Source of the DNA: Octopus vulgaris
Taxonomy: Eukaryota
DNA: 64,000 nucleotides
Assembly (NCBI GenBank): GCA_951406725.2
Contig: OX597832.1
Location: forward strand, 23,932,001 to 23,996,000
Reading direction: 5' to 3'
Part shown: piece after piece, positions 12,101-47,252 of the stretch
Layout of the letters: each line of letters opens with the position of its first letter
Numbering within the stretch: the first letter of the stretch is position 1
Translations under genes and position numbers: made by a program
Notes under the pieces: model-generated
What the model saw: the letters and a program-made list of their open reading frames with translations, nothing else
What the model was told of the DNA's origin: nothing
Databases searched by the model: none

Positions 12101-15100
12101 TCCCACTGTGTGGCACCTTGGGCAAGTGTCTTCTGCTATAGCCTCGGGCCAACTAAAGCCTTGTGAGTGGATTTGGTCACAGAAACTGAAAGAAGCCCAT
12201 TGTGTGTGTGTGTGTATACACACATATATATATATATATGTGTGTGTGTGTATGTATATGTGTTCGTCTCTGCCACCATCGCTTGACAACCGATGTTGGT
12301 GTGTTTACATCCCTGTAACTTAGCTTTTTGGGAAAAGAAACCAATAGAATAAGTGCTAGGCTTTCAAAGAATAAGTCCTGGGGGTGATTTGTTGGACTAA
12401 AGGCAGTGCTCCAGCATGGCCGCAGTCAAATGAGTAAAAGAGTACTAGACCCATTTCAATGTTCAATTTGATTTCTTGTCGTTTATTGTATTGCTGTTTT
12501 ATGAGTTCAGTGGAATGAACAATAATTTTTTTTATACAACAGTAAACAGACATTAGCGTAGGAGTGGCTGTGTGGTAAGTAGCTTGCTTACCAACCACAT
12601 GGTTCCGGGTTCAGTCCCACTGTGTGGCACCTTGGGCAAGTGTCTTCTACTATAGCCTCGTGCCGACCAAAGCCTTGTGAGTGAATTTGGTAGACGGAAA
12701 CTGAAAGAAGCCCGTGATATATATGTGTTTGTGTGTCTGTGTTTGTCCCCCCAACATCGCTTGACAACCGATACTGGTGTGTTTACGTCCCTGTAACTTA
12801 GCGGTTTGGCAAAAAAGACCGATAGAATAAGTACTAGGCTTACAAAGAATAAGTCCTGGGGGTCGATTTCCTAGACTAAAGGCGGTGCTCCAGCATGGCC
12901 ACAGTCAAATGACTGAAACAAGTAAAAGAGTAAACAATTTTGGGGATCAGTCTATGAGGGAGCCTCTATGTGGACACTTGACCTGTTAGAAATAGCAACC
13001 AAATCTCCCTCAAATTACCTTGGCCTTCATTGGAGCAGATGAAGAGGGGTGTTTCCAGTGTATGGATTGTCTCTTTCTCTCTGACTCAAAGTGGTGAGTC
13101 CAACATTCATCCTGGGTTAGGAAATGGTCAAAGAAATCAGCTGGTTATGCCTCAATGCCATAGTTTCCTGTGATGTGATTTCCTGCCAAGTTCTTTGTGC
13201 AGAATATTCTTAATTCTCTCATCATCATTATTTAACGTCAGCTTTCCATGCTAGCATGGGTTGGACGGTTCGACTGGGGTCTGGGAAGCCAGGAGGCTGC
13301 ACCAAGCCCAGTCTGGTCTGGCAGTGTTTCTACAGCTGGATATGTTAATAGCATTGGCTGTTTGATTTATAGTCAATAACCATGTGATTAACATAATCAA
13401 TGTTTTTGTCGGTGGTGGCAGTTGCAAGATATCCAAAGCTTGGGTCATCTTCAAGACTCTCTGTTCCCCTCCTAAATTGAGCCACCCGCTTTTGCACTGT
13501 TGATAGAGCTAGAGCAGGGGTTCTCAAAGTGGGCAGTGGAAAGATCCAGCGGGATGTTGAAGAAAAATAGGATGATAATGGGGTGGCCACAATCAGGTGA
13601 TAAATGTAAAAAAAAAATATATATTAATAAGTTAATTAGGTTTAATTAAGTTTTATTTGCGAACTACAGTTGTTTTGAATTTGCTGCAGAAAGTGGTCTG
13701 TGTTTGTGGTGGTGGGGGGGGGGCGCTAGGAATGTAGCCTGGGTGCCGAGTGGGCAGCATCCTGGCATAGTTCAGTCAGTAGAGCATCAGACTTTTATAG
13801 GTCAACCTTAGAAGTAATCTGAGGGACGCGGGTTCGAGTCCCTTGAATTTGGGCTGGATAGGGCTGGTTAAAATGCTAAAGGGTTCATACATTCTTATTT
13901 CTTTATTGCCCGCAAGGGGCTAAACATAGAGGGGACAAACAAGGACAGACAAAGGAATTGAGTCGATTACATCGACCCCCGTACGTAGCTGGTACTTAAT
14001 TTATCGCCCCCGAAAGGTTGAAAGGCAAAGTTGACCTCGGTGGAATTTGAACTCAGAACATAACAGCAGATGAAATACTGCTAAGCATTTCGCCCAGCAT
14101 GCTAACGTTTCTGCCAACTTGCTGCCTAGGGTTCATACATTCTATTACATAAAATGCTTCGTTTCTCATCTTCTTTATTTTTTTACTTATTAATTAACTC
14201 TTATAACTCAATTCATTCTCTTCTCTCTGTTTTACAGGTCTGGCAGTACATAACACTGATGAGAAGAATATATTTGGTAGATTGTCCTGGTGTGGTGTAT
14301 CCGTCTGGTTCCACTCCTACAGAAATTGTTTTGAAAGGTGTGGTAAGTATTATAGAGATTTCATTCTCTCCATCCATGACCATCTCATTGTTTTGTATCT
14401 CTAGGACTACATTATTCAAAATTAATTTTCTCTGTTGTTTGTACTCTGTGTAAGTTGGATCTATTAATATAAATATCTAAATATTTGTACTTAAATATTC
14501 ATCGTTTGAATGTCTTTTACGTGCCACCAGCACATCTATCACAACTACAATTTTCATTTGATATTTATTTTGATATTGTTGTATATATATATACATATTA
14601 GAAGAAATGAGGTAATCAGAAGATCAGATGGTTTATATTTACAGATATTTATTTATATATATATCATATCACTTAGATCATTAGCGCTTTCTCCCATTCT
14701 AGTGGGGTTTTCAAATCAAAATATATGCATATACATATATACACAACAGTTTTTTTCAGTTTCCATTCACCAAATCAAGCATATAACAAATATGTACCAT
14801 TCTTTTATAAAAAATATTTTTATTAAATTCTCTTAAAAGACGCCTCCTCTCGTGTTGCAGAACACCAGAATTTTTCCTTAAAGCTTGGGGGGTTCCTCAT
14901 AACTTCGAGGAAAAAAATTCTTCATCCATTGGACTGATCCACCAGTGGCTTGTTCTGGATAACCTTGTTGTAATGAAAGCATTCTCCTTAAATTCCAGGT
15001 ACGAGTGGAACATCTGAGGAATCCCGAAGACTACATCGGAGCTGTACTTGAACGAGTACGACCTGAATATATTACACGAGCCTACAAAATAGAAGGTTGG

Positions 15101-27749: not shown

Positions 27750-28340
27750 ACTTATGAATCGTTTAATTTGACGTAGAATTTAATTATTGTTGAATATGCA
27801 TTTGAACACAGCAATAATAGAGCTGCCCGAAGGCATTTTAACATTAACGAAGCCAGTGCTGGAAATTGACATAAACAGTAGGACAAACTTTAAACTGTGC
27901 CTAGTAATAAACATGCCAATAAGGGTACATCCTCAAAATACCCCGAGTTAGAGATTGAACTTTATCACTGGATATGTGGCGAACACAATGAGGGTTTTGG
28001 TGTAAGCACCACCGAGATAAGATTAAGTGCTGGTCAGTTATTTAAGACCAAATGTGGAGCTGATAGTGTGGGCTTTAAAGCTTCGTTGAACAGGTGCTAT
28101 CATTTTATGAACCATTATGACTTAAGTGTACAACATAGAACAACAATTGTGCAAAGACTTCCTGAAGGTTATGAAGAAAATTTGACAAACTTTCAGAATC
28201 TTATTATCAAAGAAATGCAGAACGAACCCCGTTAACGTGTGATTTGCCGTATGACACAACAGTGACACATGTTAATGAAAAATCAGTTAAAATAAGAATT
28301 GGAAATGAAAAGAAAAAATTTACTGTGATGCTTGGGAAAT
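27750..28340 (+). mobile_element. pogo/Tigger (CENP-B HTH, POGK-like) transposase remnant
   Basis: KYPELEIELYHWI...VSTTEIRL...FKASLNRCYHFMNHYDLSVQHRTTIVQRLP. Confidence 0.78.
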
Positions 28341-28381: not shown

Positions 28382-30425
28382 GCATATTCATACAAGCATG
28401 CCCATTGCTTTAACATAAATAGTCTATTATATATCTATATAGGCATAAGTATGATATTTTGACTCTTTTTATCCAGAGTGTCCAAACAGGAGATTTGACT
28501 TTGAATATGGTAGATCTTGTTACCACAATCGAACTATATGGTTAGGGGAAAGTATAACTTTGATTCATATTATCCAAAGTGTCTTCAAATACGATAGATC
28601 CTGTTATCACCATGGAAACTATAAACTAAGACAAAATGGCAACCTATCAAATCATTTTTTCCGAATTGCAATGATGATGATTGTTCCTGAGAGGTAATGT
28701 TCTTTCGTAGATATAAGCTCAGCATATGAATATCGGTATGAACATTAACCAAAGAAGGCATGGACAAATTTATATTTCTTTGTGGAATCAAATGCAAAAT
28801 GTCTCTGTCTGATCTGTGGTGAAACAGTCGCAGTTCCAAAAGTTGAAAATGTGAAACGGCATTACACGTTAAAGCACACTTCGACCCATAATCGTTATGA
28901 AGGAGATCAAGTATTTTTACTTCAAAGGAATTTAGTCTCGCAACAGAATATTTTTGGGAAAATAGATGATGAAGTAAGTTTTGTCATTGCTGAAAAGATT
29001 GCACAAAACATGAAACCTTTTTCGGAAGGAGGCTTTATCAACAAATGTATCAGCTCGGCGATTGAAATTCTGTGCCCAGAGAAATAGAAAGCTATAAAAT
29101 GTGTTAGGTTGTCGCGTAATACAATAACCCGAAAGATTGAAGAACTGGCTGAAAATACGAAAATTCAGTTGAACAAACTGTAAAAACTTCAAAACTTACA
29201 GCATATTCATACAAATATGCCCATTGCTTTAACATAAATAGTCTATTATATATCTATATAGGCATAAGTATGATATTTTGACTCTTCTTATCCAGAGTGT
29301 CCAAACAGGAGATTTGACTTTGAATACGGTAGATCTTGTTACCACAATCAAACTATATGGTTAGGGGAAAATATAACTTCGATTCATATTATCCAAAGTG
29401 TCTAGGCCGAAGATTCGACTTCAAATACGATAGATCCTGTTATCACAATGGAAACTATAAACTAAGACAAAATGGCAACCTATCAAATCATTTTTTCCGA
29501 ATTGCAATGATGATGATTGTTCCTGAGAGGTAATGTTCTTTCGTAGATATAAGCTCAGCATATGAATATCGGTATGAACATTAACCAAAGAAGGCATGGA
29601 CAAATTTATATTTCTTTGTGGAATCAAATGCAAAATGTCTCTGTCTGATCTGTGGTGAAACAGTCGCAGTTCCAAAAGTTGAAAATGTGAAACGGCATTA
29701 CACGTTAAAGCACACTTCGACCCATAATCGTTATGAAGGAGATCAAGTATTTTTACTTCAAAGGAATTTAGTCTCGCAACAGAATATTTTTGGGAAAATA
29801 GATGATGAAGTAAGTTTTGTCATTGCTGAAAAGATTGCACAAAACATGAAACCTTTTTCGGAAGGAGGCTTTATCAACAAATGTATCAGCTCGGCGATTG
29901 AAATTCTGTGCCCAGAGAAATAGAAAGCTATAAAATGTGTTAGGTTGTCGCGTAATACAATAACCCGAAAGATTGAAGAACTGGCTGAAAATACGAAAAT
30001 TCAGTTGAACAAACTGTAAAAACTTCAAAACTTACAGCATATTCATACAAATATGCCCATTGCTTTAACATAAATAGTCTATTATATATCTATATAGGCA
30101 TAAGTATGATATTTTGACTCTTCTTATCCAGAGTGTCCAAACAGGAGATTTGACTTTGAATACGGTAGATCTTGTTACCACAATCAAACTATATGGTTAG
30201 GGAAAATATAACTTCGATTCATATTATCCAAAGTGTCTAGGCCGAAGATTCGACTTCAAATACGATAGATCCTGTTATCACAATGGAAACTATAAACTAA
30301 GACAAAATGGCAACCTATCAAATCATTTTTTCCGAAATGCAATGATGATGATTGTTCCTGAGTGGTAATGTTCTTTCGTAGATAAGCTCAGCATATGAAT
30401 ATCGGTATGAACATTAACCAAAGAA
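28382..30425 (+). repeat. ~836-bp tandem duplication (2.5 copies) of satellite monomers plus an hAT fragment
   Basis: GCATATTCATACAA at 28382, 29201 and 30037; identical ORFs at 28782 and 29618. Confidence 0.9.
28757..29200 (+). mobile_element. hAT (SPIN/Charlie, GTF2IRD2-like) transposase fragment; second copy 29593-30036
   Basis: WTNLYFFVESNAKCLCLICGETVAVPKVENVKRHYTLKH (BED-like finger), KPFSEGGFINKC, LSRNTITR.IEEL. Confidence 0.8.
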
Positions 30426-30963
30426 GATTAGACGTCATCAATAGATTCTCTGAGAACTTATTTGGCATGAAAGAGCAGTTACATCACTTTCAAATTGCAC
30501 CTAGCATCAATAGAGAAAGGACACATCAAATAATGTCCTTCTGCATTTGGCTGTCCATATGAACAGCTCAGGGAATTGGTGCTACACATGCTCTACAGAG
30601 GCCAGTGTAACGTCAGCATCTGTGGGAGTCCTGTGAAAAGTTACACAGGTGGAACTTGGCATCCCTCAAATCTTGGCTGGTAACCATGTTAGAGATGGCA
30701 TTATATTTGGGGTGACTCTTAACATGAAAATCTCAAAACATCCTCAAGGTGAAAAGCCTGTACAAAATCCTTCTCATTCTTTGCAATAATGATAACTAAT
30801 ACCAACGCAAATAACAGCATCAATAGGAGGACCTGACCTCCATGTCCAAAATGCTGGATCTCCTGCACCCAACAGGGGCCCCTCAGAGAGCAATGGATTG
30901 GAAGATCAAACTCCATCTGGTCGTGGTCCTTTTACTAGTAAAAATACACAACATGCTTTATAC

Positions 30964-31745
30964 CAGTGCTGCCCAACGTCCGGGCTGGATCCAGCCCACG
31001 AAGCCTTAGAATATGGCCCGCTAGTCGGTCTTCAATTTATGGGTATCTGCAAAACAAATTACAAAAAATCACATTAAAGTATCCCCTTTATGTCAAGGAA
31101 GTGTGCTACACGCAGGTCTTCTCCATACGTCATTATGAGACGTGATTTATCTGCGACAGAGATAGTTTTAAGCATGCTGAGTCAGCTGCTGACCATGTTG
31201 TGGACGAATACCAATTTTCCGTGGCTGAAAACTGTAAAGTCAAGCCAGCAGCCAATCACATCGCTCAATCAATGGGGAAAATCACCGCCTAAGAATTTCA
31301 TTAGATTTTGTGCTTGAAGACCGATTCTCGGTGGATGAATGAATAATTCTATAAAACTGGCATTTAAGGTGATTTAATTTCAAATTTACTCAGGCACAAC
31401 TTTTGATATGGACACCTTCTTATACTGATGAGCAAATTACAGTAGTTTCTTTTCCACAATAAATTTCAAATTTTGTTCATCCAAGGAATTTAGTCTCGCA
31501 ACAGAATATTTTTTTGGAAAATAGATGATAAAGTAAGTTTTGTCATTGCTGAAGAGATTGCACGAAACCTTTTTCGGAAGGAGGCTTTATCAACAAATGA
31601 ATCAGCTCGGCGATTGAATTTCTGGGTCAGAGAAAGAGAAAGCTATAAAATGTGTTAGGTTGTCGCGTAATACAATAACCCGAAGGATTGAAGAACTGGC
31701 TGAAAATATGAAAATTCAGTTGAACGAACTCTGTAAAAACTGCCA
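30964..31745 (+). mobile_element. hAT left end plus a third transposase fragment
   Basis: CAGTGCTGCCCAAC terminus with GGCCC subterminal motifs; 31485-31740 repeats the hAT coding piece. Confidence 0.6.
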
Positions 31746-31758
31746 GAATATAACAGTA

Positions 31759-32183
31759 AATTTCGCTGACACCCTGCATCAGAAAAAAGAAATTATAAAG
31801 TTCACAAATGAAGAGTTAATAGAAACGAGAGCACTCTTCACAACCTCAGGACAGGATCTGGTATTAGATACACCACAACAGATTAAGGAAGCAATAGAAA
31901 ACAAAACGATTATATATAAAATTACACTGGGGTCCCCAGTTTAATACAGTGGTGGTCCACTTCCCTAACCAGGAAGTGGCAAAAGCTCACTCTACGGAGT
32001 CTTTGCAAAATGATGAAATCATCATGATCCCATATCACAAAGGCCAGAGAGTGAGTAAAATTAGCATTAAAAATGTACCACCTGAGATACCTGAGCGATT
32101 TGTTACCATTTGAAAACTATAAATATTTTAGAGATTGCCGTATACAAAAACGACAATTGGGGTGGTAAATCGATAGAAATCGC
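31759..32183 (+). mobile_element. Tx1/L1-type ORF1 module, copy 1 (deleted)
   Basis: Homologous to 32985-33415. Confidence 0.7.
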
Positions 32184-32189
32184 CTGTTT

Positions 32190-33620
32190 TATTGTTTATT
32201 GTAAAAGTTTTGTTTCAAATTTTCGCACACGACGTGTGTAAGAAACCCAGCTTTCGTCTGGGTGTGTTTTCCGAGGGGGAATTTGCCCCTAGGGGCAATT
32301 TCAGCCCAGTTTTCATATCAAAATTTTTGCTTCTCCCTATTTTTTACATGTTTCGTCTAATGTATAAGCGGTCACTCTTCACAACTTCTGGACAAAATCT
32401 GATACTGCACACACCACAACATGTGGCTTTTTGTTTACATTTTTTTGCTTTCGAAGTTTTGAAGCGCCCAACTTTTGTTTGGGTATTTCTAAGTGTGGAA
32501 TTCGACCCTAGGGGCATTTTCTTCACCTTTTTAATATTAAATTTTATTTCTCGATACTAAAAATGTCGAGAAATTTGATTGTTGAGCAGTGGTCAACACT
32601 ATTCTCTGACGAAGATTTTCCCAGCCTAGGAATGACAGAAAGAAGAAGACATGAATTGCTGGATAACGTAAAGTCGAAAACAAGGTTTGAAAAAGAAATT
32701 GCTGTCGACCACAAAGATATTTCCACAACTCTTGATAGCCCTGTCATCACCAACACCACCAAAACTACCACCTCCACTGCCACAACAATCATTAACAACA
32801 ACAACAACATCAGTGATATTGATATAAATGTGCCTGCTATTTCGCAAGATTTGAATATCTCACCTATTACTGGTGAATATTAATAAAACAAAATTAACGT
32901 TCCCTGGAAATGCTACCAACACTACACCAACTAACACTAATATTTTGCTGCGGTAACAACAACAGTTAGAAGAGACCTTCTGTTAATTTCGCTGACACCC
33001 TGCATCAGAAAAAAGAAATTATAAAGTTCACAAATGAAGAGTTAATAGAAACGAGAGCACTCTTCACAACCTCAGGACAGGATCTGGTATTGCATACACC
33101 ACAACACAATGAAACAAAAGCAAACACACGATTATATATAAAATTATACTGGGGTCCCCAGTTTAATACAGTGGTGGTCCACTTCCCTAACCAGGAAGTG
33201 GCAAAAGCTCACTCTACAGAGACTTTACAAAATGATGAAATCATCATGATTCCGTATTACAAAGGACAAAGAGTGAGCAAAATTAGAATTAAAAATGTCC
33301 CAACAGATATACCACCCAAATGGATAACATCGGCGATATGTTATCACCTAAACACAATAAACATATTGGAAATCGCCATTGTTAAAAACGATAATTGGAG
33401 TGGTAAATCGATAAAGGTGACCCTTCAAATCGATGGGTCCTCTATCGAGAACTTACCCAATATCATATACTTGGAAAATGGGCAAAGCCTATATGTTGTA
33501 GTAGAAGGTAAAAAAACCACGATGTTACAGCTGTGGCAGCCCAGACCACTTAATCGCAAAGTGCGTTTTGACACATAATAAAACCAGAACAGTTACAAGC
33601 AAAACATAATGAAAATAGAA
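32190..33620 (+). mobile_element. Tx1/L1-type LINE 5' UTR plus ORF1 (gag-like, CCHC knuckle), copy 2
   Basis: ATG at 32563, Thr/Asn-rich linker, KIRIKNVP, VVVEGKK.RCYSCGSPDHLIAKC (frameshifted). Confidence 0.72.
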
Positions 33621-34904
33621 GAGTCCATAAACTATGAAAATATTTACGCCGCACGGATTTTGCAAATACCTAAATAACAACAAAGAAATCAGATGGGTAG
33701 TATGCGCGGATAAACTTGAAACAGACCAACAAAAAGCAATGCTTAAACAGCTAACGTGCAAAGATATAAACACAGAAGTCTTACCCTCGGCTGAAAACTC
33801 TGATAACGAGTCCATCAGCAAAACGAACACAGTCAGAGGGAACAAGTATGACTTTGTGAAAAAAATCATGAAAAAGTGTAATCCAACAGACATGGGTGAC
33901 ATTATAAGATTTTGTAAAAACACACCGAAAACAACTTACAGAAATAACTGGAGCAACATTTATAGAAATACACCAAATATAACGACAATCATTAATGCAG
34001 CTGCTACGGAAACCAACATCGAGACTCTAAGTACTCCCATATGGGAACAGATTAGAGATAAAAAGCAGTTCTTCTCTTACAATACAAATAACTACCACAG
34101 TGTACAAACATCGTTGGACATATACGAATGATGGCTGAAACACCACAATAAAGATGCAGACGATTTCGGCAGGCATACGTTCGAAGTTTGTCATAAGATC
34201 AACCCAAAAATTAACGGGTTGCATTTGACAGGGGCGAGTAACTCCGGTAAAAGTTATGTACTAAGAAGCATACGTAACAGACACATGAAATGCAGACGAA
34301 TGCGCTGTCAAGCGACAGACAACTTCACCTTCGGGTCATGCGTAGACAAAACACTCATATACACCGACGAAATGTGGTTTACCACAAACAACGTCGAGGA
34401 AGCAAAATGCATACTAGAAGGCACTGACACTTATATCAACATAAAACATCAGGCCGAAAGAGTTTTGAAACGTACACCTTCTCTCTTCACTTCAAATCAA
34501 GACCCATGGAGGGTCGTGCTACAAGAAGAACAGGTGCTGAAAAACCGGCTGTTTATCTACGAAACACAGAAGCATGCCGCAACTTAAAGATTGGGGAAAA
34601 GTAGAACTCAATCCGCTAATGTGGCTTACGATATGGAAAAACTACATTGAGAAATACGTCACAAACACATACAGTCAAATGTGTATAGAGAAAAACAAAC
34701 CCAAACCATCAAACCGCTTCAACACAAACGACATTGATCACCTTTCGCCAAACAAAAAGAGAACATTATACGCCATAAAAAGAAAACTAGAAAACGTATT
34801 AGACTCACCAGCAAAACGACCATGCGTACTAGACCCGACAATAGCAGCACAAGCATGCCTCTACCACAGCAACATTAGTGACGCCTGCTACTTCGCTGGT
34901 GACG
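33621..34904 (+). pseudogene. Endogenous parvoviral element: NS1 (SF3 helicase) pseudogene
   Basis: Frame 33634-34587 with one TGA (34129-34131). Walker A KINGLHLTGASNSGKS, Walker B LIYTDE, B' EEAKCILEG..INIKH, motif C FTSN, LKNR; a frameshifted tail contains LNPLMW. Confidence 0.85.
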
Positions 34905-35369
34905 AATACAGTGGTGGTCCACTTCCATAATCAGGAAGAAGCAAAAGACCACTCGACAGAAAATTTACAAAACGATGAACTAATAATGATTCCTTATTAC
35001 AGAAACCAAAAGAATCAGTAAAATTAAAATAAAAAATGTACCACCGGAGATACCTAACAAATGGATAACAGGAGCGATATGTTACCATTTGAAAACGATA
35101 AACATATTAGAGATTGCCGTATACAAAAACGACAATTGGGGTGGTAAATCGATAGAAGTCAGCATCCAGATTGATGGGTCCTCTATAGAGAAACTTCCTG
35201 ATAAGATTCTTTTAGAGAATGGGCAAAGACTATATGTGGTAGCAGAAGGGAAAAAGCCAAGATGCTACAACTGTGGAAGCCCAGAACTTTTAATCGCAAA
35301 GTGCGTTTTGGCACATAAAAAAACAAGAACAGTTACAAACAAAACACAAAACAAATAGAAAACAACCTT
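34905..35369 (+). mobile_element. ORF1 module, copy 3
   Basis: VVAEGKKPRCYNCGSPELLIAKCVLAHKKTRTVTNKTQNK*. Confidence 0.75.
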
Positions 35370-35400
35370 TGCTACCAACACCACCAAACCCACAACAGAT

Positions 35401-36660
35401 GCGTGACGGCATATGCGGACGATGTCACCATCATAGTGTCGAGCGTAAAGCACATCGTGATGCTAGGCGAGACACTAAAAGAATACGAAACGGTGACGGG
35501 AGCGAAAATTAACCCAAAGAAGTCAGTGTTTTTGCTACTCGGCACCTGGAGAAGCAAGCCCTTACTGTCCAACAGCAACTCAGTAGTGGGACGCTGGACG
35601 GACGGACCGGTTAAATTGCTCAGGGTCTGGTTCAGTCCAGACCGCCAAATGGATAAGAACTGGGACGAGATTGCGAGTAGAGTGGTCGCTCTCAGCCAAA
35701 CATGGGCCAAGGGAAAGCTGTCTCTAAAAGATCGGGTGGAGGTGGCTAATGCGTATATCGCATCCGTCATCGATTACCACCTGACTGTCGTGCCTTGTTC
35801 CGATGCTACCATCATGAAACTAGAACACATATTCTTCCACTTTCTGTGGAAGGGTGGCGTTCCGATGGTGAAGCGATCCATTTGCTGTCAACATACGTTA
35901 AATGGAGGACTGGGCATGCCATGGCTAATGATGCGCAGGCATGTGCCGAGACTGCGGCATCTCTAGAACTTCATTGACAACGGTGAACAGGTGTGGGCGT
36001 CGTTTGTGAGGCGCGCCTTCCCACAGCTTGTCTTACTGACCGAACTGCAAGCATGGATCAAAAAGAGACCGAAACTAGGCAATTGGCACCGAGAGTGTCA
36101 CCAAGCTCTACAGTAGTTCTGCTGTCCGGGATCAAATTTGTGGAACTTCCAAACGATCAAAGCGTTCTATAGAGGACTAGTGGAGGGGAGGTCCGACAAC
36201 ACACTCGGGGCAAATTCCTAACCCGCCTTTTCAGGACAACTTTCGGGCCGGGGCCTATGGATAACTTCCAGAGATCCCAGGCTTGGCAATGCTATCGGGA
36301 CGCACTACCAGTTCGAGAGAAGAGCTACAGACACGGTTCAAAAACCACCGGACCGACCTGCCCGAGATGCGGTCATAATGACGAAACCGTTCTGCACGCA
36401 CTCGTGCAGTGTCCAGATATTTCAGAGCTGTGGACCTTCGTCGAACAGCAGTTGTCGCGTGTAGGACGGGCCCGCTTATCGGCCGAGTCTATCGTGAATA
36501 TTGTTCCGCCACCTTCCTTTAAATGGGAAGCAAAAACAGTTTTCGTAACACTGGTAGCTATGGCAAAAGAATGCGTGTGGTGGCCACGTTTGAAAGGCTT
36601 ACAAACACATTCCTCTCTGGTCAGTCTCTCGTCAACTTTTTCAAGTACCACTTGAAAAGG
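35401..36660 (+). mobile_element. Tx1/L1-clade ORF2 fragment (RT C-half plus CCHC)
   Basis: TAYADDVT, GAKINPKKS, GGLG, CPRCGHNDETVLHALVQC; stops and frameshifts present. Confidence 0.88.
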
Positions 36661-37096
36661 AGGAAGTGGCAAAAGCTCACTCTACGGAGACTTTACAAAA
36701 TGATGAAATCATCATGGTACCATATTACAAAGGACAAAGAGTGAGCAAAATTAGAATTAAAAATGTCCCGACAGAAATAACACCCAAATGGATAACATCG
36801 ACGATATGTTACCATTTAAAAACGATAAATATATTAGAAATCGCCGTGTACAAAAATGACAATTGGGGTGGTAAAACAATAGAGGTTACCATCCAGATTG
36901 ATGGGTCCTCTATTGAGAACCTACCTGATAGGATTCACTTAGAAAATGGGCAAAGCCTATATGTTGTAGCAGAAAGGAAAAAGCCAAGATGCTACAACTG
37001 TGGCAGTCCAGAACATTTAATCGCAAAGTGCGTTTTGGCACATAAAAAAACAAGAACAGTTACAAGCGAAACACAAAACAAATAGAAAACAACCTT
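36661..37096 (+). mobile_element. ORF1 module, copy 4
   Basis: CYNCGSPEHLIAKC (CX2CX4HX4C) followed by TVTSETQNK*. Confidence 0.78.
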
Positions 37097-37119
37097 ATGC
37101 AACAACTAATTCATTTGGT

Positions 37120-37825
37120 TGTACAAATTGTTTGCACGGGAAACCTGCTCTGTGTGGTGGTTTTCCCGTTTTTGTATATGTTTTCGGCTTTTTTTAGCCA
37201 TTTTTGTTTTGACGATGGCGACTTCAAACCATGAAGTCGTCGTTGAAAAGAACGCTGGTCTCCTTGACAGCGCTTACGACGTTGATTTCCCTACACTGCC
37301 TTCACCACAGCTTCATGAAGAAGAGATGAAGGGGAGAAACAACACAGCTGCAAGTGTGAGCATGAACGCTAACATCGCCACCGACACACAAAAAATTGTA
37401 AACACACAGACAACAGCTTCACAGTCAACTACTGAATCAGACAACTCTGCCACCACCACCAACAACATCGTCATTTTGCCGTCTACCATAACTGCCAACA
37501 ACAACACCACTGCTACAACCTCAACTACTAGGGCTTTTCCAAGGGAGGAATTGGCCCCTAGGGGCAGTTTCAACCATAATTAAATTGTGTATTTTTCTTC
37601 TCGACATTAAAAATGTTGAGAAATTTTATTGTTGAATGCCGGTCAAACTCCTTCATGGACCAGCATTTTCCTAGACTTGAAACGCTACGAGAAAAAAAGA
37701 ACTTATGCACGCAAAGTGCAAACCTGAATGACGTGGTAGTGAACGCTGCAACCACTTGGCAAAAGAATGTGTATGGTGGACGTATCTGAAAGGCCTAGAC
37801 ACAAACTCTTTACACTCTGGTCAAC
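37120..37825 (+). mobile_element. Mosaic of LINE 5' UTR/ORF1 starts and a short ORF2 3' piece
   Basis: MATSNHEVVVEK..DFPTLP start; 37545-37690 resembles 32270-32640; 37755-37825 resembles 36560-36625. Confidence 0.55.
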
Positions 37826-37827
37826 TC

Positions 37828-38410
37828 CTGCTATGTGTTGCGCAAATGGAAAAAGTGAACCCCACACCGCTGGATGATCCACCACAGCTGTAGAGGCACA
37901 ACTATAGAGTCGAAACATTTCCTCAATAACATCTGAAAGTACAGTTGTGCATTAGAAATGACATCTTTCGGCGCTAATACTGTTCAAGAAGGCGGGTTTG
38001 TGTCTGCTTTCAAAGTGCAGGAACAGATTCACCATAGGATAGGATCACTCAAACCTGCTGAAAATCAAGATCCCCAATTCTTTCAACTGTACTTTGTGGG
38101 CAATTTACATGAACAAGCCACCCTACGAAACTCCATTTCAACTGGCACTAACTTTCACCCGACAATGCAACTACAAGAACTTTTGCACCAGAAAAACAGC
38201 TCTGTATGCAGCTTCAAGTATGCCTTTGATACAGAAGCTTGGTCAAATTTTAATGTTATCATTAATGCTCAGAAAAGATCATCTAGGGAACATACAGGCC
38301 GCTACTATGCACCCACATGCAATACAATAGCTGTACTCCTTCGCAGTGGACAGCACAATCCCAGAGACATTGTCTTTAGACGACGTGACACCACCCTTCG
38401 ACACGTCATA
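37828..38410 (+). mobile_element. Helitron Rep/Hel N-terminal fragment
   Basis: MCCANGK, MTSFGA...FKVQEQIHHRIGSLKP...PQFFQLYF, RYYAPT, RDIV motifs typical of Helitron helicase-like proteins. Confidence 0.82.
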
Positions 38411-38585
38411 CATGAGTCTTTGTTCGAGGACTTGTCGAAATTTCACCCCACAAACAGCCGAAAAAACAAAGATGACCGTTTAAGGTAGGTGATGTCTCGA
38501 ATTCATGTAGGGTGCACAAATGTGCGTGGCCAATCGTCGAACTGGAAGCAAGGGCGCTTCCTAAATGCCATCAGGTCACGGGATT
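38411..38585 (+). mobile_element. Tx1-type ORF1 end and ORF2 endonuclease start
   Basis: ...KDDRLR* followed by MSRIHVGCTNVRGQSSNWKQGRFLNAIRS (APE domain I, NVRG motif). Confidence 0.7.
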
Positions 38586-41500
38586 TGACTTTGAATCTAA
38601 CAGATCTTGTTACCACAATGGTCTCAGAAGATTCTACTTTGAACGGGAAAGAACCTTTACCACAATGGCAATAAGTATGTTGGTTATCAGACATACATTT
38701 CTACTCTTTTTCTCCAAAGTGTGATGATGATTTTTACTAAATTCATCATCATCTTCAGTGGATAAGTTCAGCGTATGAACATTAGTACGAGCATTAACCA
38801 ATGGTAATAATCACATGCTGGAAGCAAGGAATTCCTATCCACTTTTTTTCATCCTAAATATCTTGACAAAAGAATAAAGTATAAATATGATAAATCTTAC
38901 CATAATGGCAACTGTAAAGTAAGGCATAGTGGTAACATATCCACTCTTTTCATCCAAAAAGTGATGATGATGATTGTTGCTGAGTTGTAATCTTCTATCG
39001 ATATAACCAAAAAGGTACTGAAGTGCCTTTTAACAAGACTTTGAGTCTGGAGCAGGGACATCCATTCTTTTCATCCGAAGCATCCTGCCAGAAGATTTGA
39101 CTCGTGACATAAAGGATCTTCTTACCAAAATGGCAAAAGTTATGAAGTTGGGCACAAGGGAAACATTTTCCACTTTTTTTTTCATCTGAAGAGTCTCAAC
39201 AGAAGGTACGACTTGTAATATGATAAGTTTTATTACAACAACAGCATGTGAAAGTTCTTGTTACCACAATTGCAATAATTGTGAAATTAGACACACCGGT
39301 AACATTTGCATGTTTTTTCCGAGTGTTTATTAACAAATGATTCTGCTTGGAACATTATACAGGTAACTTTTGCACTCTCTTTACCTGAAGTAGGACGGTG
39401 ATTGTTGCTCACCTGTATTCTTCTTTCGTGGATAAGCTCAGCATATGAACAATAGTACGAACATTAACCAAAGGTTACATCTGACCAACAGATTCTCTGA
39501 GAACTCAGAATATCTTTCAAGTCGCACCTAACATCTACAAAAAAGGACACATTAGATGGCGTTCTGTATTTGGATGTCCGTATGAACATCTCAGGGAATT
39601 GGCGACATCCATGCCCTGCATAGGTCAGTGAAATTTCAGCATCTGTGGGAGACTTGTAGCAAGTTATACAGGGCGCCGAATGGAGCACAAGACTAGACTC
39701 CACCCGGTCACGGTCCTTTTACTGGTCAAAATACACAAAATGCTCGGAAGTGCAAGTGGTCAGTCAATATAAACAAAAACACATTTAAGTGCCATTTAAC
39801 GTGACTCACTCAAGTCAGGAGAAACAGACATCAGAATGTTTATTTCTGATAGAAATAGATATCAGAAAGTTGTTGCTATCATAATGGCAATAATTATGCA
39901 ACTAGGCATACGGATAACATTTCACCTTTTATTATCCAAAGGGTCTCAGAAGATTCTACTTTGAACAAGAAAGAACCTTTACCACAATGGCAATCAGTTT
40001 ATTGGTTATACGGCCACAGTTCTCTTTTTGTCCAAAAGCAATTATAAAGTGACACAAAGTGGAAACGTTTCCACTCTTTTTATCCAAAGAATTTGTTACA
40101 ACAAAAGCAATTATAAAGTTACACATAATGGGAACAATTCTACTCTTTTCATCCAAAGTGCCTTGACAGAAGATTCCACTTTGAATATAATAGATCCTGT
40201 TGCCACAATGGCAATAGTTATCTAGTTAGGTATATGTGTAACGTTTCCACAAATAGGCCCATAGCTTTTTAATCAGTAATTCTATTATATACCTACATCA
40301 GCAAAAGTCTGATTATTTGAGTCTTTTTATCCAAAATGTCATAGACAGAAGATTCAACATTTAATACAATAGGTCTTCTTAACACAATGGCATGTGATAG
40401 GTGTTGCCATCATAATGGCAATAATTATGCAATTAGGCATACGGATAACATTTCAACATTTATTATCCAAAGGGTCTCAGAAGATTCTACTTTGAACAAG
40501 AAAGAACCTTTACCACAATGGCAATAAGTTTGTTGGTTATCTGAACATTTCTACTCTTTTTCTCCAAAGTGTGATGATGATTTTTACTAAATCATCATCA
40601 TCTTCAGTGGATAAGTTCAGCGTATGAACATTAGTACGAGCATTATCCAATGGTAATAATCACTTGCTGGGAGCAAGGGATTCCTATCCACTTTTTTTCA
40701 TCCTAAATATCTTGTCAAAAGAATAAAGTATAAATATGATGAATCTTACCATAATGGCAACTATGAAGTAAGGCATAGTGGTAACATATCCACTCTTTCA
40801 TCCAAAAAGTGATGATGATGATTGTTGCTGAGTTGTAATCTTCTGTCGATATAACCAAAAAGGTATTGCAGTGCCGTTTAACAAGACTTTGAGTCTGGAG
40901 CAGGGACATCCATTCTTTTCATCCGAAGCATCCTGCCAGAAGATTTGACTCGTGACATAAAGGATCTTCTTACCAAAATGGCAAAAGTTATGAAGTTGGG
41001 CACAAGGGAAACATTTTCCACTTTTATTTTTTACTTGAAGAGTCTCAACAGAAGGTACGACTTGTAATATGATAAGTTTTATTACAACAACAGCATGTGA
41101 AAGTTCTTGTTACCACAATTGCAATAATTGTGAAATTAGACACACCGGTAACATTTGCATGTTTTTTCCGAGTGTTTATTAACAAATGATTCTGCTTGGA
41201 ACATTATACAGGTAACTTTTGCACTCTCTTTACCTGAAGTATGACGGTGATTGCTGCTCACCTGTATTCTTCTTTCGTGGATAAGCTCAGCATATAAACA
41301 ATAGTACGAACATTAACCAAAGGTTACATCTGACCAACAGATTCTCTGAGAACTCAGAATATCTTTCAAGTCGCACCTAACATCCACAAAAAAGGACACA
41401 TTAGATGGCGTTCTGTATTTGGATGTCCGTATGAACATCTCAGGGAATTGGCGACATCCATGCCTTGCATAGGTCAGTGAAATTTCAGCATCTGTGGGAG

Positions 41501-44500
41501 ACTTGCAACAAGTTATACAGGGCGCCGAACGGAGCACTAGACTAGACTCCAGCCGGTCATGGTCCTTTTACTGGTCAAAATACACAAAATGCTCGGAAGT
41601 GCAAGTGGTCAGTCAATATAAACAAAAACACATTTAAGTGCCATTTAACGTGACTCACTCAAGTCAGGAGAAACAGACATCAGAATGTTTATTTCTGATA
41701 GAAATAGATATCAGAAAGTTGTTGCTATCATAATGGCAATAATTATGCAACTAGGCATACGGATAACATTTCACCTTTTATTATCCAAAGGGTCTCAGAA
41801 GATTCTACTTTGAACAAGAAAGAACCTTTACCACAATGGCAATCAGTTTATTGGTTATACGGCCACAGTTCTCTTTTTGTCCAAAAGCAATTATAAAGTG
41901 ACACAAAGTGGAAACGTTTCCATTCTTTTTATCCAAAGAATTTGTTACAACAAAAGCAATTATAAAGTTACACATAATGGGAACAATTCTACTCTTTTCA
42001 TCCAAAGTGCCTTGACAGAAGATTCCACTTTGAATATAATAGATCCTGTTGCCACAATGGCAATAGTTATCTAGTTAGGTATATGTGTAACGTTTCCACA
42101 AATAGGCCCATAGCTTTTTAATCAGTAATTCTATTATATACCTACATCAGCAAAAGTCTGATTATTTGAGTCTTTTTATCCAAAATGTCATAGACAGAAG
42201 ATTCAACATTTAATACAATAGGTCTTCTTAACACAATGGCATGTGATAGGTGTTGCCATCATAATGGCAATAATTATGCAATTAGGCATACGGATAACAT
42301 TTCAACATTTATTATCCAAAGGGTCTCAGAAGATTCTACTTTGAACAAGAAAGAACCTTTACCACAATGGCAATAAGTTTGTTGGTTATCTGAACATTTC
42401 TACTCTTTTTCTCCAAAGTGTGATGATGATTTTTACTAAATCATCATCATCTTCAGTGGATAAGTTCAGCGTATGAACATTAGTACGAGCATTATCCAAT
42501 GGTAATAATCACTTGCTGGGAGCAAGGGATTCCTATCCACTTTTTTTCATCCTAAATATCTTGTCAAAAGAATAAAGTATAAATATGATGAATCTTACCA
42601 TAATGGCAACTATGAAGTAAGGCATAGTGGTAACATATCCACTCTTTCATCCAAAAAGTGATGATGATGATTGTTGCTGAGTTGTAATCTTCTGTCGATA
42701 TAACCAAAAAGGTATTGAAGTGCCGTTTAACAAGACTTTGAGACTGGAGCAGGGACATCCATTCTTTTCATCCGAAGCATCCTGCCAGAAGATTTGACTC
42801 GTGACATAAAGGATCTTCTTACCAAAATGGCAAAAGTTATGAAGTTGGGCACAAGGGAAACATTTTCCACTTTTTTTTTTACCTGAAGAGTCTCAACAGA
42901 AGGTACGACTTGTAATATGATAAGTTTTATTACAACAACAGCATGTGAAAGTTCTTGTTACCACAATTGCAATAATTGTGAAATTAGACACACCGGTAAC
43001 ATTTGCATGTTTCTTCCGAGTGTTTCTCGACAAACGATTCTGCTTGGAACATTATACAGGTAACTTCTGCACTCTCTTTACATGAAGTATGACGGTGATT
43101 GTTGCTCACCTGTATTCTTCTTTCGTGGATAAGCTCAGCATATGAACAATAGTACAAACATTAACCAAAGATTACAACTGACCAACAGATTCTCTGAGAA
43201 CTCAGAATATCTTTCAAGTCGCACCTAACATCCACAAAAAAGGACACATTAGATGGCGTTCTGTATTTGGATGTCCATAAGAACATCTCAGGGAATTGGC
43301 GACATCCATGCCTTGCATAGGTCAGTGAAATTTCAGCATCTGTGGGAGACTTGCAACAAGTTATACAGGGCGCCGAACGGAGCACTAGACTAGACTCCAG
43401 CCGGTCATGGTCCTTTTACTGGTCAAAATACACAAAATGCTCGGAAGTGCAAGTGGTCAGTCAATATAAACAAAAACACATTTAAGTGCCATTTAACGTG
43501 ACTCACTCAAGTCAGGAGAAACAGACATCAGAATGTTTATTTCTGATAGAAATAGATATCAGAAAGTTGTTGCTATCATAATGGCAATAATTATGCAACT
43601 AGGCATACGGATAACATTTCACCTTTTATTATCCAAAGGGTCTCAGAAGATTCTACTTTGAACAAGAAAGAACCTTTACCACAATGGCAATCAGTTTATT
43701 GGTTATACGGCCACAGTTCTCTTTTTGTCCAAAAGCAATTATAAAGTGACACAAAGTGGAAACGTTTCCACTCTTTTTATCCAAAGAATTTGTTACAACA
43801 AAAGCAATTATAAAGTTACACATAATGGGAACAATTCTACTCTTTTCATCCAAAGTGCCTTGACAGAAGATTCCACTTTGAATATAATAGATCCTGTTGC
43901 CACAATGGCAATAGTTATCTAGTTAGGTATATGTGTAACGTTTCCACAAATAGGCCCATAGCTTTTTAATCAGTAATTCTATTATATACCTACATCAGCA
44001 AAAGTCTGATTATTTGAGTCTTTTTATCCAAAATGTCATAGACAGAAGATTCAACATTTAATACAATAGGTCTTCTTAACACAATGGCATGTGATAGGTG
44101 TTGCCATCATAATGGCAATAATTATGCAATTAGGCATACGGATAACATTTCAACATTTATTATCCAAAGGGTCTCAGAAGATTCTACTTTGAACAAGAAA
44201 GAACCTTTACCACAATGGCAATAAGTTTGTTGGTTATCTGAACATTTCTACTCTTTTTCTCCAAAGTGTGATGATGATTTTTACTAAATCATCATCATCT
44301 TCAGTGGATAAGTTCAGCGTATGAACATTAGTACGAGCATTATCCAATGGTAATAATCACTTGCTGGGAGCAAGGGATTCCTATCCACTTTTTTTCATCC
44401 TAAATATCTTGTCAAAAGAATAAAGTATAAATATGATGAATCTTACCATAATGGCAACTATGAAGTAAGGCATAGTGGTAACATATCCACTCTTTCATCC

Positions 44501-47252
44501 AAAAAGTGATGATGATGATTGTTGCTGAGTTGTAATCTTCTGTCGATATAACCAAAAAGGTATTGCAGTGCCGTTTAACAAGACTTTGAGTCTGGAGCAG
44601 GGACATCCATTCTTTTCATCCGAAGCATCCTGCCAGAAGATTTGACTCGTGACATAAAGGATCTTCTTACCAAAATGGCAAAAGTTATGAAGTTGGGCAC
44701 AAGGGAAACATTTTCCACTTTTATTTTTTACTTGAAGAGTCTCAACAGAAGGTACGACTTGTAATATGATAAGTTTTATTACAACAACAGCATGTGAAAG
44801 TTCTTGATACCACAATTGCAATAATTGTGAAATTAGACACACCGGTAACATTTGCATGTTTTTTCCGAGTGTTTATTAACAAATGATTCTGCTTGGAACA
44901 TTATACAGGTAACTTTTGCACTCTCTTTACCTGAAGTATGACGGTGATTGCTGCTCACCTGTATTCTTCTTTCGTGGATAAGCTCAGCATATAAACAATA
45001 GTACGAACATTAACCAAAGGTTACATCTGACCTACAGATTCTCTGAGAACTCAGAATATCTTTCAAGTCGCACCTAACATCTACAAAAAAGGACACATTA
45101 GATGGCGTTCTGTATTTGGATGTCCGTATGAACATCTCAGGGAATTGGCGACATCCATGCCTTGCATAGGTCAGTGAAATTTCAGCATCTGTGGGAGACT
45201 TGCAACAAGTTATACAGGGCGCCGAACGGAGCACTAGACTAGACTCCAGCCGGTCATGGTCCTTTTACTGGTCAAAATACACAAAATGCTCGGAAGTGCA
45301 AGTGGTCAGTCAATATAAACAAAAACACATTTAAGTGCCATTTAACGTGACTCACTCAAGTCAGGAGAAACAGACATCAGAATGTTTATTTCTGATAGAA
45401 ATAGATATCAGAAAGTTGTTGCTATCATAATGGCAATAATTATGCAACTAGGCATACGGATAACATTTCACCTTTTATTATCCAAAGGGTCTCAGAAGAT
45501 TCTACTTTGAACAAGAAAGAACCTTTACCACAATGGCAATCAGTTTATTGGTTATACGGCCACAGTTCTCTTTTTGTCCAAAAGCAATTATAAAGTGACA
45601 CAAAGTGGAAACGTTTCCACTCTTTTTATCCAAAGAATTTGTTACAACAAAAGCAATTATAAAGTTACACATAATGGGAACAATTCTACTCTTTTCATCC
45701 TAAGTGCCTTGACAGAAGATTCCACTTTGAATATAATAGATCCTGTTGCCACAATGGCAATAGTTATCTAGTTAGGTATATGTGTAACGTTTCCACAAAT
45801 AGGCCCATAGCTTTTTAATCAGTAATTCTATTATATACCTACATCAGCAAAAGTCTGATTATTTGAGTCTTTTTATCCAAAATGTCATAGACAGAAGATT
45901 CAACATTTAATACAATAGGTCTTCTTAACACAATGGCATGTGATAGGTGTTGCCATCATAATGGCAATAATTATGCAATTAGGCATACGGATAACATTTC
46001 AACATTTATTATCCAAAGGGTCTCAGAAGATTCTACTTTGAACAAGAAAGAACCTTTACCACAATGGCAATAAGTTTGTTGGTTATCTGAACATTTCTAC
46101 TCTTTTTCTCCAAAGTGTGATGATGATTTTTACTAAATCATCATCATCTTCAGTGGATAAGTTCAGTGTATGAACATTAGTACGAGCATTATCCAATGGT
46201 AATAATCACTTGCTGGGAGCAAGGGATTCCTATCCACTTTTTTTCATCCTAAATATCTTGTCAAAAGAATAAAGTATAAATATGATGAATCTTACCATAA
46301 TGGCAACTATGAAGTAAGGCATAGTGGTAACATATCCACTCTTTCATCCAAAAAGTGATGATGATGATTGTTGCTGAGTTGTAATCTTCTGTCGATATAA
46401 CCAAAAAGGTATTGCAGTGCCGTTTAACAAGACTTTGAGTCTGGAGCAGGGACATCCATTCTTTTCATCCGAAGCATCCTGCCAGAAGATTTGACTCGTG
46501 ACATAAAGGATCTTCTTACCAAAATGGCAAAAGTTATGAAGTTGGGCACAAGGGAAACATTTTCCACTTTTATTTTTTACTTGAAGAGTCTCAACAGAAG
46601 GTACGACTTGTAATATGATAAGTTTTATTACAACAACAGCATGTGAAAGTTCTTGTTACCACAATTGCAATAATTGTGAAATTAGACACACCAGTAACAT
46701 TTGCATGTTTTTTCCGAGTGTTTATTAACAAATGATTCTGCTTGGAACATTATACAGGTAACTTTTGCACTCTCTTTACCTGAAGTATGACAGTGATTGC
46801 TGCTCACCTGTATTCTTCTTTCGTGGATAAGCTCAGCATATGAACAATAGTACGAACATTAACCAAAGATTACAACTGACCAACAGATTCTCTGAGAACT
46901 CAGAATATCTTTCAAGTCGCACCTAACATCTACAAAAAAGGACACATTAGATGGCGTTCTGTATTTGGATGTCCGTATGAACATCTCAGGGAATTGGTGA
47001 CATCCATGCCCTGCATAGGTCAGTGAAATTTCAGCATCTGTGGGAGACTTGTAGCAAGTTATACAGGGCGCCGAATGGAGCACAAGACTAGACTCCACCC
47101 GGTCACGGTCCTTTTACTGGTCTAAATACACAAAATGCTTGGAAATGCAATGGTCAGTCAATATAAACAAAAACACATTTAAGTGCCATTTAACGTGACT
47201 CACTCACAGTCAGGAGAAACAGACATCAGAATGTTTATTCCTGATAGAAATA

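Follow-up and report, generated by a model that had tools for sequence, protein, structure and literature searches.

LINE (long interspersed nuclear element) chimeras formed by template switching, with hot-spot switch sites, are documented in the portion of PMC2104539 drawn on here. Endonuclease-independent LINE insertions are characterised, in the portion used of PMC1920257, by missing target-site duplications (TSDs), target deletions, co-captured cellular RNAs and microhomology at the insert ends. For endogenous viral elements (EVEs), the section of PMC2987831 referred to here names retroelement-mediated entry and non-homologous recombination as the routes into the host genome. We describe a block of ~6.8 kb (31742-38586) that combines features of these systems, located in a 64,000-nt window of the Octopus vulgaris genome (G000:C19:23932001-23996000, 2.8-Gb genome; the window is the whole stretch of DNA that was analysed, and coordinates below are window positions). 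The block lies between two satellite arrays and is a directly abutted mosaic with every piece on the + strand, as established by LINE mapping, Pfam and BLASTP, in which a fragment of a parvoviral NS1 gene stands among pieces of LINEs. Weighing confidence and doubt about evenly, we read the block as a composite cDNA that arose when the enzyme switched templates serially and that was caught at a break.

Composition of the block

The region from 29 to 42 kb was mapped onto near-full-length LINE copies of the same genome (L032 on C31 and elements on C13 and C16), with Pfam and BLASTP as further support for the order of the pieces. The mosaic is made up of 12 pieces: four come from LINE open reading frame 1 (ORF1, with a CCHC motif), three from LINE 5' regions and two from the 3' part of ORF2, and the other three are a LINE endonuclease start, the NS1 piece and a Helitron-like piece. 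A first-pass annotation of the window had given the order as hAT piece, ORF1, LINE 5' UTR, ORF1, NS1, ORF1, Tx1 reverse transcriptase (RT), ORF1, other LINE 5' ends, Helitron and endonuclease, which is right in substance by all three approaches. The features of the block and its flanks (UTR, untranslated region) are as follows.

28382-31741, +: left flank, a tandem array with a unit of 819-836 bp (self-BLAST, 97.6% between units)
31742-32178, +: ORF1 copy 1, pre-ORF1 region and first part of the ORF1 C-terminal half (reference 1178-1722)
32179 to ~33600, +: LINE 5'UTR through ORF1, copy 2 (contiguous match to the C13 element)
33634-34900, +: parvovirus NS1-derived EVE, truncated at both ends (Pfam Parvo_NS1, 8.3e-17)
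34905-35398, +: ORF1 copy 3 with 48 nt of inter-ORF spacer (L032 1473-1942)
35401-36662, +: LINE ORF2 C-terminal part, YADD box through zf-RVT (L032 4789-6078, 88%)
36663-37095, +: ORF1 copy 4, an open 163-aa frame with CCHC (zf-CCHC match; reference 1501-1922)
37096-37529, +: piece of a second LINE family, 5'UTR and beginning of ORF1 (genome copies)
37530-37758, +: LINE 5'UTR end and ORF1 start, L032 type (L032 726-954, 90%)
37759-37822, +: short LINE ORF2 3' fragment (L032 5971-6037; paralogue of 36561-36627)
37823-38397, +: repeated coding fragment, Helitron-like N-terminal region (genome copies, 82-88%)
38398-38586, +: beginning of an endonuclease ORF of LINE type that belongs to another repeat family (separate genome matches, 80-90%)
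38582-47000, +: right flank, 38 nt resembling the left unit, then a 1849-bp satellite from 38617 (self-comparison)

The segment 31472-31741, previously described as a hAT piece belonging to the cargo, is the end of the last, partial unit of the left array (90.6% identity to 28914-29188 and 29750-30024) and is accordingly part of the flank. At the other side of the block, 38582-38619 has 87% identity to left-unit positions 29311-29348, and the satellite start (38617-39300) has 96% identity to later units. When compared with paralogous units of the same array, the two flanks correspond to unit positions up to 29188 and from 29311 onwards, with ~122 nt of the unit absent and no duplication. Because both flanks resemble parts of one local repeat unit, the block is regarded as a single insert in a satellite region.

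Two further observations concern the arrays themselves. Those at 38617-47000 (period 1849 bp, 96% between units) and 28382-30426 (97.6%) are composed of related sub-repeats, and a 'CYHNGN'-like motif recurs in the reading frames of both. The tandem repeats at 28382-30426 carry a unit ORF (28749-29084) that matches zf-C2H2_12 (3e-9).

Joins, orientation and missing insertion scars

All 11 joins (J1, the left edge, to J10 and the right edge) connect pieces in the same direction, an agreement with an arithmetic probability of ~2^-11 under random orientation. Nine of the joins have identified parents on both sides, and these share 4 (AACT), 1, 2 (GC), 4 (AGGA), ~3 (TGC), 2 (TG), 1, 0 and 5 (ATTTG) nt, the 4 nt AACT and the 5 nt ATTTG belonging to the outer edges (J1 and right edge, respectively). 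Microhomology, which the first-pass annotation had proposed to score, averaged 2.4 nt over these nine joins compared to 0.73 in the null (P = 0.0012), and the excess persisted when the ambiguous pair (the GC and TGC joins) was left out (P = 0.0015). At the join near 36660 letters are indeed shared, as had been noted, but when set against the parental copies they number four (AGGA) and not six (AGGAAG).

No TSD, poly(A) tract or (TATC)n was found inside the block (tails were sought across 31400-38900), which agrees with the earlier remark that TSDs are not visible at the joins. In full-length copies of the LINE family, (TATC)n marks the boundaries. The natural LINE 3' end is missing from all 10 LINE pieces. 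Eight of the 10 derive from the first ~2.8 kb of the ~6-kb element, with a bias toward its 5' 2 kb, and three LINE 5' pieces stop between 32 and ~150 nt from a LINE 5' end. The reference spans of the pieces (1178-1722, ~635-1900, 1473-1942, 4789-6078, 1501-1922, 726-954 and 5971-6037) overlap and are non-collinear, the sole simple collinear pair being copy 3 and the ORF2 piece, which together represent an internal deletion from 1942 to 4789. The pieces are therefore not halves of elements split by nested insertions, and the outcome that would have spoken for such an origin, nested pieces with TSDs resolving into one full-length LINE, was not what the mapping returned.

The LINE family and its ORF1 and ORF2 pieces

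L032 contains zf-CCHC (1e-4), Exo_endo_phos (5e-16), RVT_1 (2e-29) and zf-RVT (1e-5) domains by Pfam, and judged from this domain content the abundant host family is an APE-type LINE with a CCHC ORF1 (L1/Tx1-like). Copy 1 aligns to L032 1194-1364 and 1436-1722 and is cut at reference position 1722. Copy 2 does not start at 32563, as had been stated, since LINE similarity is present already from 32179, in the 5'UTR; when set against the C13 copy this start lies ~32 nt inside the full-length LINE 5' end. The alignments of copy 2 run from 32178-33106 (C13 element 1391-2330) and from 33145-33620 (2465-2921), its ORF (32970-33578) is open and its 3' break is located somewhere in 33592-33633. The reported starts of copies 3 and 4 (34905 and 36661) hold, and all 37 matches to copy 4 outside the window start at 36661. 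Copy 4 has a zf-CCHC match, and the Pfam search of ORF1 pieces 2 and 3 returned no significant family.

The ORF2 piece, with RVT_1 and zf-RVT matched at 35319-36655, ends ~9 nt past the ORF2 stop without a 3'UTR or tail. Among the matches listed, 39 genome copies match exactly 35401-36664, and those examined diverge in the continuation. The piece at 37096-37529 begins ~90 nt inside the full 5' end of its family, for which 1882 candidate copies were found, most matches beginning at 37095; at this boundary, 17 of 19 inspected copies extend upstream and two (L090, L092) begin at the same spot. In several loci (L080-L098), 5' regions of this second family occur as close repeats ~0.5-1.2 kb apart, which suggests monomer-like tandem 5'UTRs.

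The ORF1 bodies in the window are only 72-89% alike and are nearer to copies on other chromosomes: the body of copy 4 is 93-100% identical to L002, copy 3 is 91-100% identical to L048 or L054, and part of copy 2 is 98-100% identical to L002. Subfamily type changes over tens of bases and the bodies resemble several dispersed subfamilies; the tails of copies 2-4 all change to the L036 type at roughly one place, the tail of copy 3 tracking L036 up to CCCACAAC. Tails of copies 3 and 4 (the last 136 nt of copy 4) have 95% identity, compared to at most 85% for any other genome match. An 86-nt deletion between ATATATAAA direct repeats is common to copies 1 and 2, and the only one of 76 other rows to span it is copy 1 itself. 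In addition, three private variants are common to copies 2-4 and one to copies 1-3, all of them absent from 44 genome copies. The claim that the array is not a simple local duplication is thus borne out by the differing bodies, but the unique deletion and the private variants show that the copies are not independent. Because these are shared, the four ORF1 pieces either drew on a common small template pool or exchanged sequence locally.

Splicing was considered as a source of the 86-nt deletion and of the deletion between copy 3 and the ORF2 piece, and was rejected: direct repeats flank the former and no GT..AG is evident.

Three observations were made on other copies of the family. L116 (G000:C25:44064000-44073999, 4266-10000) is a full-length LINE in which reference 1713-2099 is duplicated internally on the same strand, and its restart at 1713 lies within 9 nt of the cut of window copy 1 (1722). 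L064/L065 (G000:C13:21008000-21024000) form a 5.2-kb head-to-tail LINE duplication of 99.4% identity (1896-7059 compared to 7160-12322 of that stretch). LINE copies also often sit directly behind the (TATC)n tail of another copy, as in L032 and L117.

Copies 2, 3 and 4 end shortly past the same ORF1 stop, as had been noticed from the sequence. Counted from the TAG, and judged against the parental copies, the breaks of copies 2, 3 and 4 fall at ~+5 nt (with an ambiguity that reaches +30), +48 nt and +17 nt. If breaks were spread uniformly over a 6-kb element, three of them falling within 44 nt would have P ~1.5e-4. An A-rich tract adjoins reference 1473 and 1501, where copies 3 and 4 begin, and also 1452, where the 86-nt deletion ends.

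The NS1 fragment and other cargo

The segment 33634-34900 is an EVE derived from a Parvoviridae NS1 gene, having SF3 helicase-domain homology, a disrupted gene and host flanks. Its alignment with P0001, a relative of 568 aa, covers residues 138-560, with 56% identity over residues 138-450 and 35% over residues 450-560. The segment is disrupted by an in-frame TGA (34129-34131) and one frameshift near 34541-34587, and has single-copy-like depth in DNA-type runs. The nearest other NS1 EVE in the genome has 83% protein identity.

As a general pattern, the acquisition route suggested in the first-pass annotation found no echo elsewhere: at none of 10 other NS1 EVE loci was an ORF1 piece present within +/-1.5 kb. 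A 20-kb NS1 EVE locus on C14 was likewise free of ORF1 pieces, the related sequence there being restricted to a repeat of the 38398-38586 type in tandem copies. A literature search at the level of abstracts, which is not proof of absence, returned no published description of parvoviral EVEs flanked by LINE ORF1. At L113/L114 (G000:C14:64328000-64347999) the 83% NS1 EVE lies 2-9 kb upstream of four same-strand repeats of the 38398-38586 type, and these sit inside larger tandem repeats.

The piece at 37823-38397, labelled Helitron at first pass, presumably represents a Helitron-like N-terminal region on the basis of its motifs. It has no Pfam match to support the label, as no Helitron domain was detected for the window ORF (E <= 5) or for the ORFs of a copy on C8 (E <= 0.001). 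Capture of gene fragments by a Helitron was considered as an explanation, and neither termini nor domains of a Helitron were identified. The last piece is related to the LINE endonuclease, 38489-38585 matching the N-terminus of L032 ORF2 by BLASTP (E 1e-8).

Uniqueness and assembly support

A search of the genome with 33400-37300, in which the best 40 of 8967 candidates were scored, did not recover the same mosaic elsewhere, and the best 39 matches outside the window cover the ORF2 piece only. Contigs from other runs bridge J3 (X2), J4 (X1, X2, X7), J7 (X1), J8 (X3), J9 (X1, X3, X7) and J10 (X1), and a contig of the NS1 piece from other runs differs by 0.4-0.6%. J4 and J7 are also spanned in run X4, which carries the first organism label. 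Contigs that belong to a second organism label differ by 1.2-3.2% and span J4, J5, J8, J9, J10 and the right edge, and the block is present under two organism labels. The bridging contig pieces listed exclude J1 and J6 and cover J2 with 30 letters on its left side.

Origin of the block

Serial template jumping, one of two mechanisms offered in the first-pass annotation, emerges as the best fit, although we infer it rather than demonstrate it. The joins appear to have been made at the RNA or cDNA level, because the pieces are in sense orientation, the joins are direct with microhomology, scars of target-primed reverse transcription are missing, LINE 5' parts predominate, the mosaic is unique and the block is a single insert with target loss. 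A LINE RT would have copied a small pool of RNAs, comprising several LINE transcripts, a parvoviral NS1 transcript and a Helitron-like transcript, and would have switched template approximately ten times along the composite cDNA. Homologous (copy-choice) switches between related LINE RNAs would yield the patchwork ORF1 bodies, and the growing cDNA would land preferentially in the A-rich tract at the ORF1 end, which would account for the near-fixed 3' ends. Stops near LINE 5' ends would be expected if synthesis proceeds toward RNA 5' ends. Capture of the cDNA would have followed at a chromosome break in the satellite region, without the normal target-primed hallmarks, and part of the sharing among ORF1 pieces may stem from gene conversion that acted locally afterwards. 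Same-strand internal deletions or duplications in other LINE copies (L033, L116, L117, L060) support switching, as do the two other genome copies whose 5' start coincides with that of the 37095 piece, and formation is compatible with either one event or a few successive ones.

If joining did take place at the RNA level, the block would document a LINE RT that, in nature, switched templates serially with high processivity, and would provide a concrete case of a DNA-virus gene entering the germ line by retroelement activity and not by DNA recombination. The breakpoint cluster at the ORF1 end points to a landing-site preference that can be tested.

Several observations weigh against serial template switching, however. 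No join proves an RNA intermediate, there being no spliced-out intron, tail or TSD. LINE chimeras as presented in the portion of PMC2104539 used here consist of two to three parts with a LINE 3' end and flanking TSDs, whereas the block has ~12 parts and none of these features. The 3'-most piece is a LINE endonuclease start and not a LINE 3' end, and because of this priming would have been non-canonical. The NS1 piece ends internally (aa 138 and ~560 of 568), hence not at RNA ends, and the LINE 5' pieces fall 32 to ~150 nt short of the DNA 5' ends. The orientation bias may be regional, since the + strand also carries the other transposable element (TE) ORFs at 27.9-57.8 kb, which belong to four distinct families. 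The shared variants and deletion can be explained just as well by local duplication or gene conversion, DNA end joining would be expected to leave microhomology to the same degree, and a parvovirus, as a DNA virus, could possibly have been captured directly as DNA.

A stronger version, in which a single germ-line RT episode with approximately ten jumps joined LINE, Helitron-like and NS1 transcripts into one cDNA that became fixed and is now found under two organism labels, is rather unlikely and is put forward tentatively. Were it true, a LINE enzyme would have endogenised a DNA-virus gene through its mRNA, with a number of jumps several times that of any described natural LINE chimera.

The strongest competitor to template switching is accretion at the DNA level, which we consider possible but on balance unlikely. 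Ordinary LINE, Helitron and viral DNA insertions would have accumulated over time in a region that retains one orientation, possibly similar to a uni-strand PIWI-interacting RNA (piRNA) cluster, and microhomology-mediated deletions, local duplications and gene conversion would have trimmed and homogenised the pieces. The surroundings are favourable to it: the TE-type ORFs identified by Pfam in 27894-57813 are all on the + strand (Tc5 HTH at 27894, zf-C2H2_12 at 28749, DDE_3 at 47581 and 57298, in addition to the mosaic), and AT skew is positive across 26-58 kb. Gene conversion would also explain the private sharing of the 86-nt deletion by copies 1 and 2, to which can be added the private variants seen in 0/44 genome copies and the likeness of the copy 3 and 4 tails; the microhomology is compatible with end joining, and the block, at 1.2-3.2% divergence under the second organism label, is old enough for decay. 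Ordinary LINE insertions, however, are 5'-truncated with a 3' tail, whereas here none of the 10 LINE pieces has a 3' end and eight are 5' parts. With the exception of the deletion between copy 3 and the ORF2 piece, no two pieces continue each other collinearly on either side of an insert, and TSD remnants are not seen. Simple local duplication fails to explain ORF1 bodies that resemble copies from other chromosomes (92-100%) more closely than one another (72-89%), and three independent deletions ending within 44 nt are improbable. If accretion were correct, the block would be an ordinary old TE-graveyard patch in a strand-biased cluster, of interest as an annotated EVE only.

The stretch 27894-57813 as a whole may be a uni-strand, piRNA-cluster-like locus, with only four TE families represented outside the block. 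Small contig sets (46-119 million letters, from at least five studies, their RNA kind being guessed) cover the mosaic, the single-copy NS1 part and the flanking satellites within 30500-39500; this hints at transcription but, the kind being guessed, is not evidence of it.

Repair of a DNA break without reverse transcription is less probable again. It would involve either capture of multiple fragments, including parvoviral DNA, by non-homologous end joining, or copying of dispersed LINEs by microhomology-mediated break-induced replication or fork stalling and template switching (MMBIR/FoSTeS). Parvoviruses replicate as nuclear DNA, and direct joins with 0-5 nt of microhomology, the absence of ~122 nt of the target unit and patchy ORF1 bodies that resemble several dispersed subfamilies are all in its favour. 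Such repair, however, is expected to join fragments in either orientation, yet 11 of 11 joins are direct, and it leaves both the bias toward LINE 5' parts and the stops near LINE 5' ends without a reason.

The other mechanism of the first-pass annotation, an ORF1-only retroelement whose 3' end is fixed, is very improbable. Such an element would be non-autonomous, in the manner of HAL1 or HeT-A, and would have inserted repeatedly while carrying or abutting cargo. Its appeal lies in the three copies that end within 44 nt past the ORF1 stop, and in an AATAAA that overlaps this stop in 33 of 44 genome copies and makes short ORF1-only transcripts conceivable. Elsewhere in the genome, however, LINE copies do not share the window 3' end. 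None of 25 copies of the same tail subfamily (L036-type query) stops within 50 nt after the ORF1 stop, with 20 running on, four stopping at +115-125 and one at ~+70, and none of 44 other distinct genome copies ends in the break zone. One of the latter (L060) has a ~100-nt internal deletion that begins in the zone, within a CAACAC repeat, while the other copies run into ORF2, and 24-25 of 27 sampled loci continue more than 1.4 kb past ORF1. An ORF1-only retroelement is therefore refuted by copies that run on, both in the same subfamily and outside it, and the idea of a new ORF1-only mobile element family is dropped whether template switching or accretion is correct. The ends in the window also have neither tail nor TSD, and the locus is internal to its contig (the window at 23.9 Mb, further matches on that contig at 0.35 Mb and 36 Mb). 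A fixed end produced by premature polyadenylation was considered as an idea only, and the three window tails read AATAGA instead of AATAAA and have no A-tail. A separate feature of the spacer was observed ~110-125 nt after the ORF1 stop, where four copies end and 13 others begin (L036-type query positions 261-276); this point looks like a recurrent junction of varied 5'UTR+ORF1 modules with ORF2 modules.

An assembly or polishing artefact mixing reads of different LINE copies is scarcely credible: mis-polishing can create subfamily switches over tens of bases such as those in ORF1, but contigs from independent runs bridge J3, J4, J5, J7, J8, J9, J10 and the right edge with 0-3% differences.

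Comparison with known systems

HeT-A/TART telomeric arrays and HAL1 display same-strand arrays, variable 5' truncation and gag- or ORF1-only units, all of which are also seen in the block. The block differs in that it has no oligo(A) at the joins, is non-telomeric and belongs to no genome-wide ORF1-only family, and the HeT-A analogy drawn at first pass accordingly breaks down on the missing A-tails and the position away from a chromosome end. In arthropods, EVE-bearing, TE-rich and strand-biased piRNA clusters hold viral fragments among TE fragments of one orientation, as the block does. The retrotransposon-virus chimeras that have been described mostly have long terminal repeat (LTR) retrotransposons as partners, whereas here a DNA virus is combined with LINE ORF1 pieces.

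The closest likeness is to LINE template-switch chimeras (U6-L1 type; WEIRD/Mg-SINE/MGL of Magnaporthe), which, in the portion of PMC2104539 drawn on, are same-orientation direct transcript fusions, dominated by LINEs, with non-random switch sites. According to the same portion, they have two to three parts, a LINE 3' end and, in the best case, TSDs, and no microhomology is reported there for the fungal set. The block, on the other hand, joins ~12 parts with short microhomology, one of them a fragment of a viral gene, and has neither a LINE 3' end nor TSDs. Its pieces are fused directly in the same sense as in template-switch retrocopies, but a LINE 3' end with tail and flanking TSDs are both lacking, and because these two defining features fail the block is kept outside the classical chimeric retrocopies.

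Endonuclease-independent L1 insertions, as covered in the portion of PMC1920257 used, resemble the block in having no TSD, a tailless 3'-truncated LINE, target loss, end microhomology and occasional co-capture of RNA. These human cases differ in being mostly single L1 fragments with short extra sequence, internal rearrangement being given there for two of 21. The block itself has no TSD, a tailless LINE and microhomology at both ends. At this single locus, the block therefore appears to behave like a multi-part template-switch chimera that was inserted without endonuclease hallmarks.

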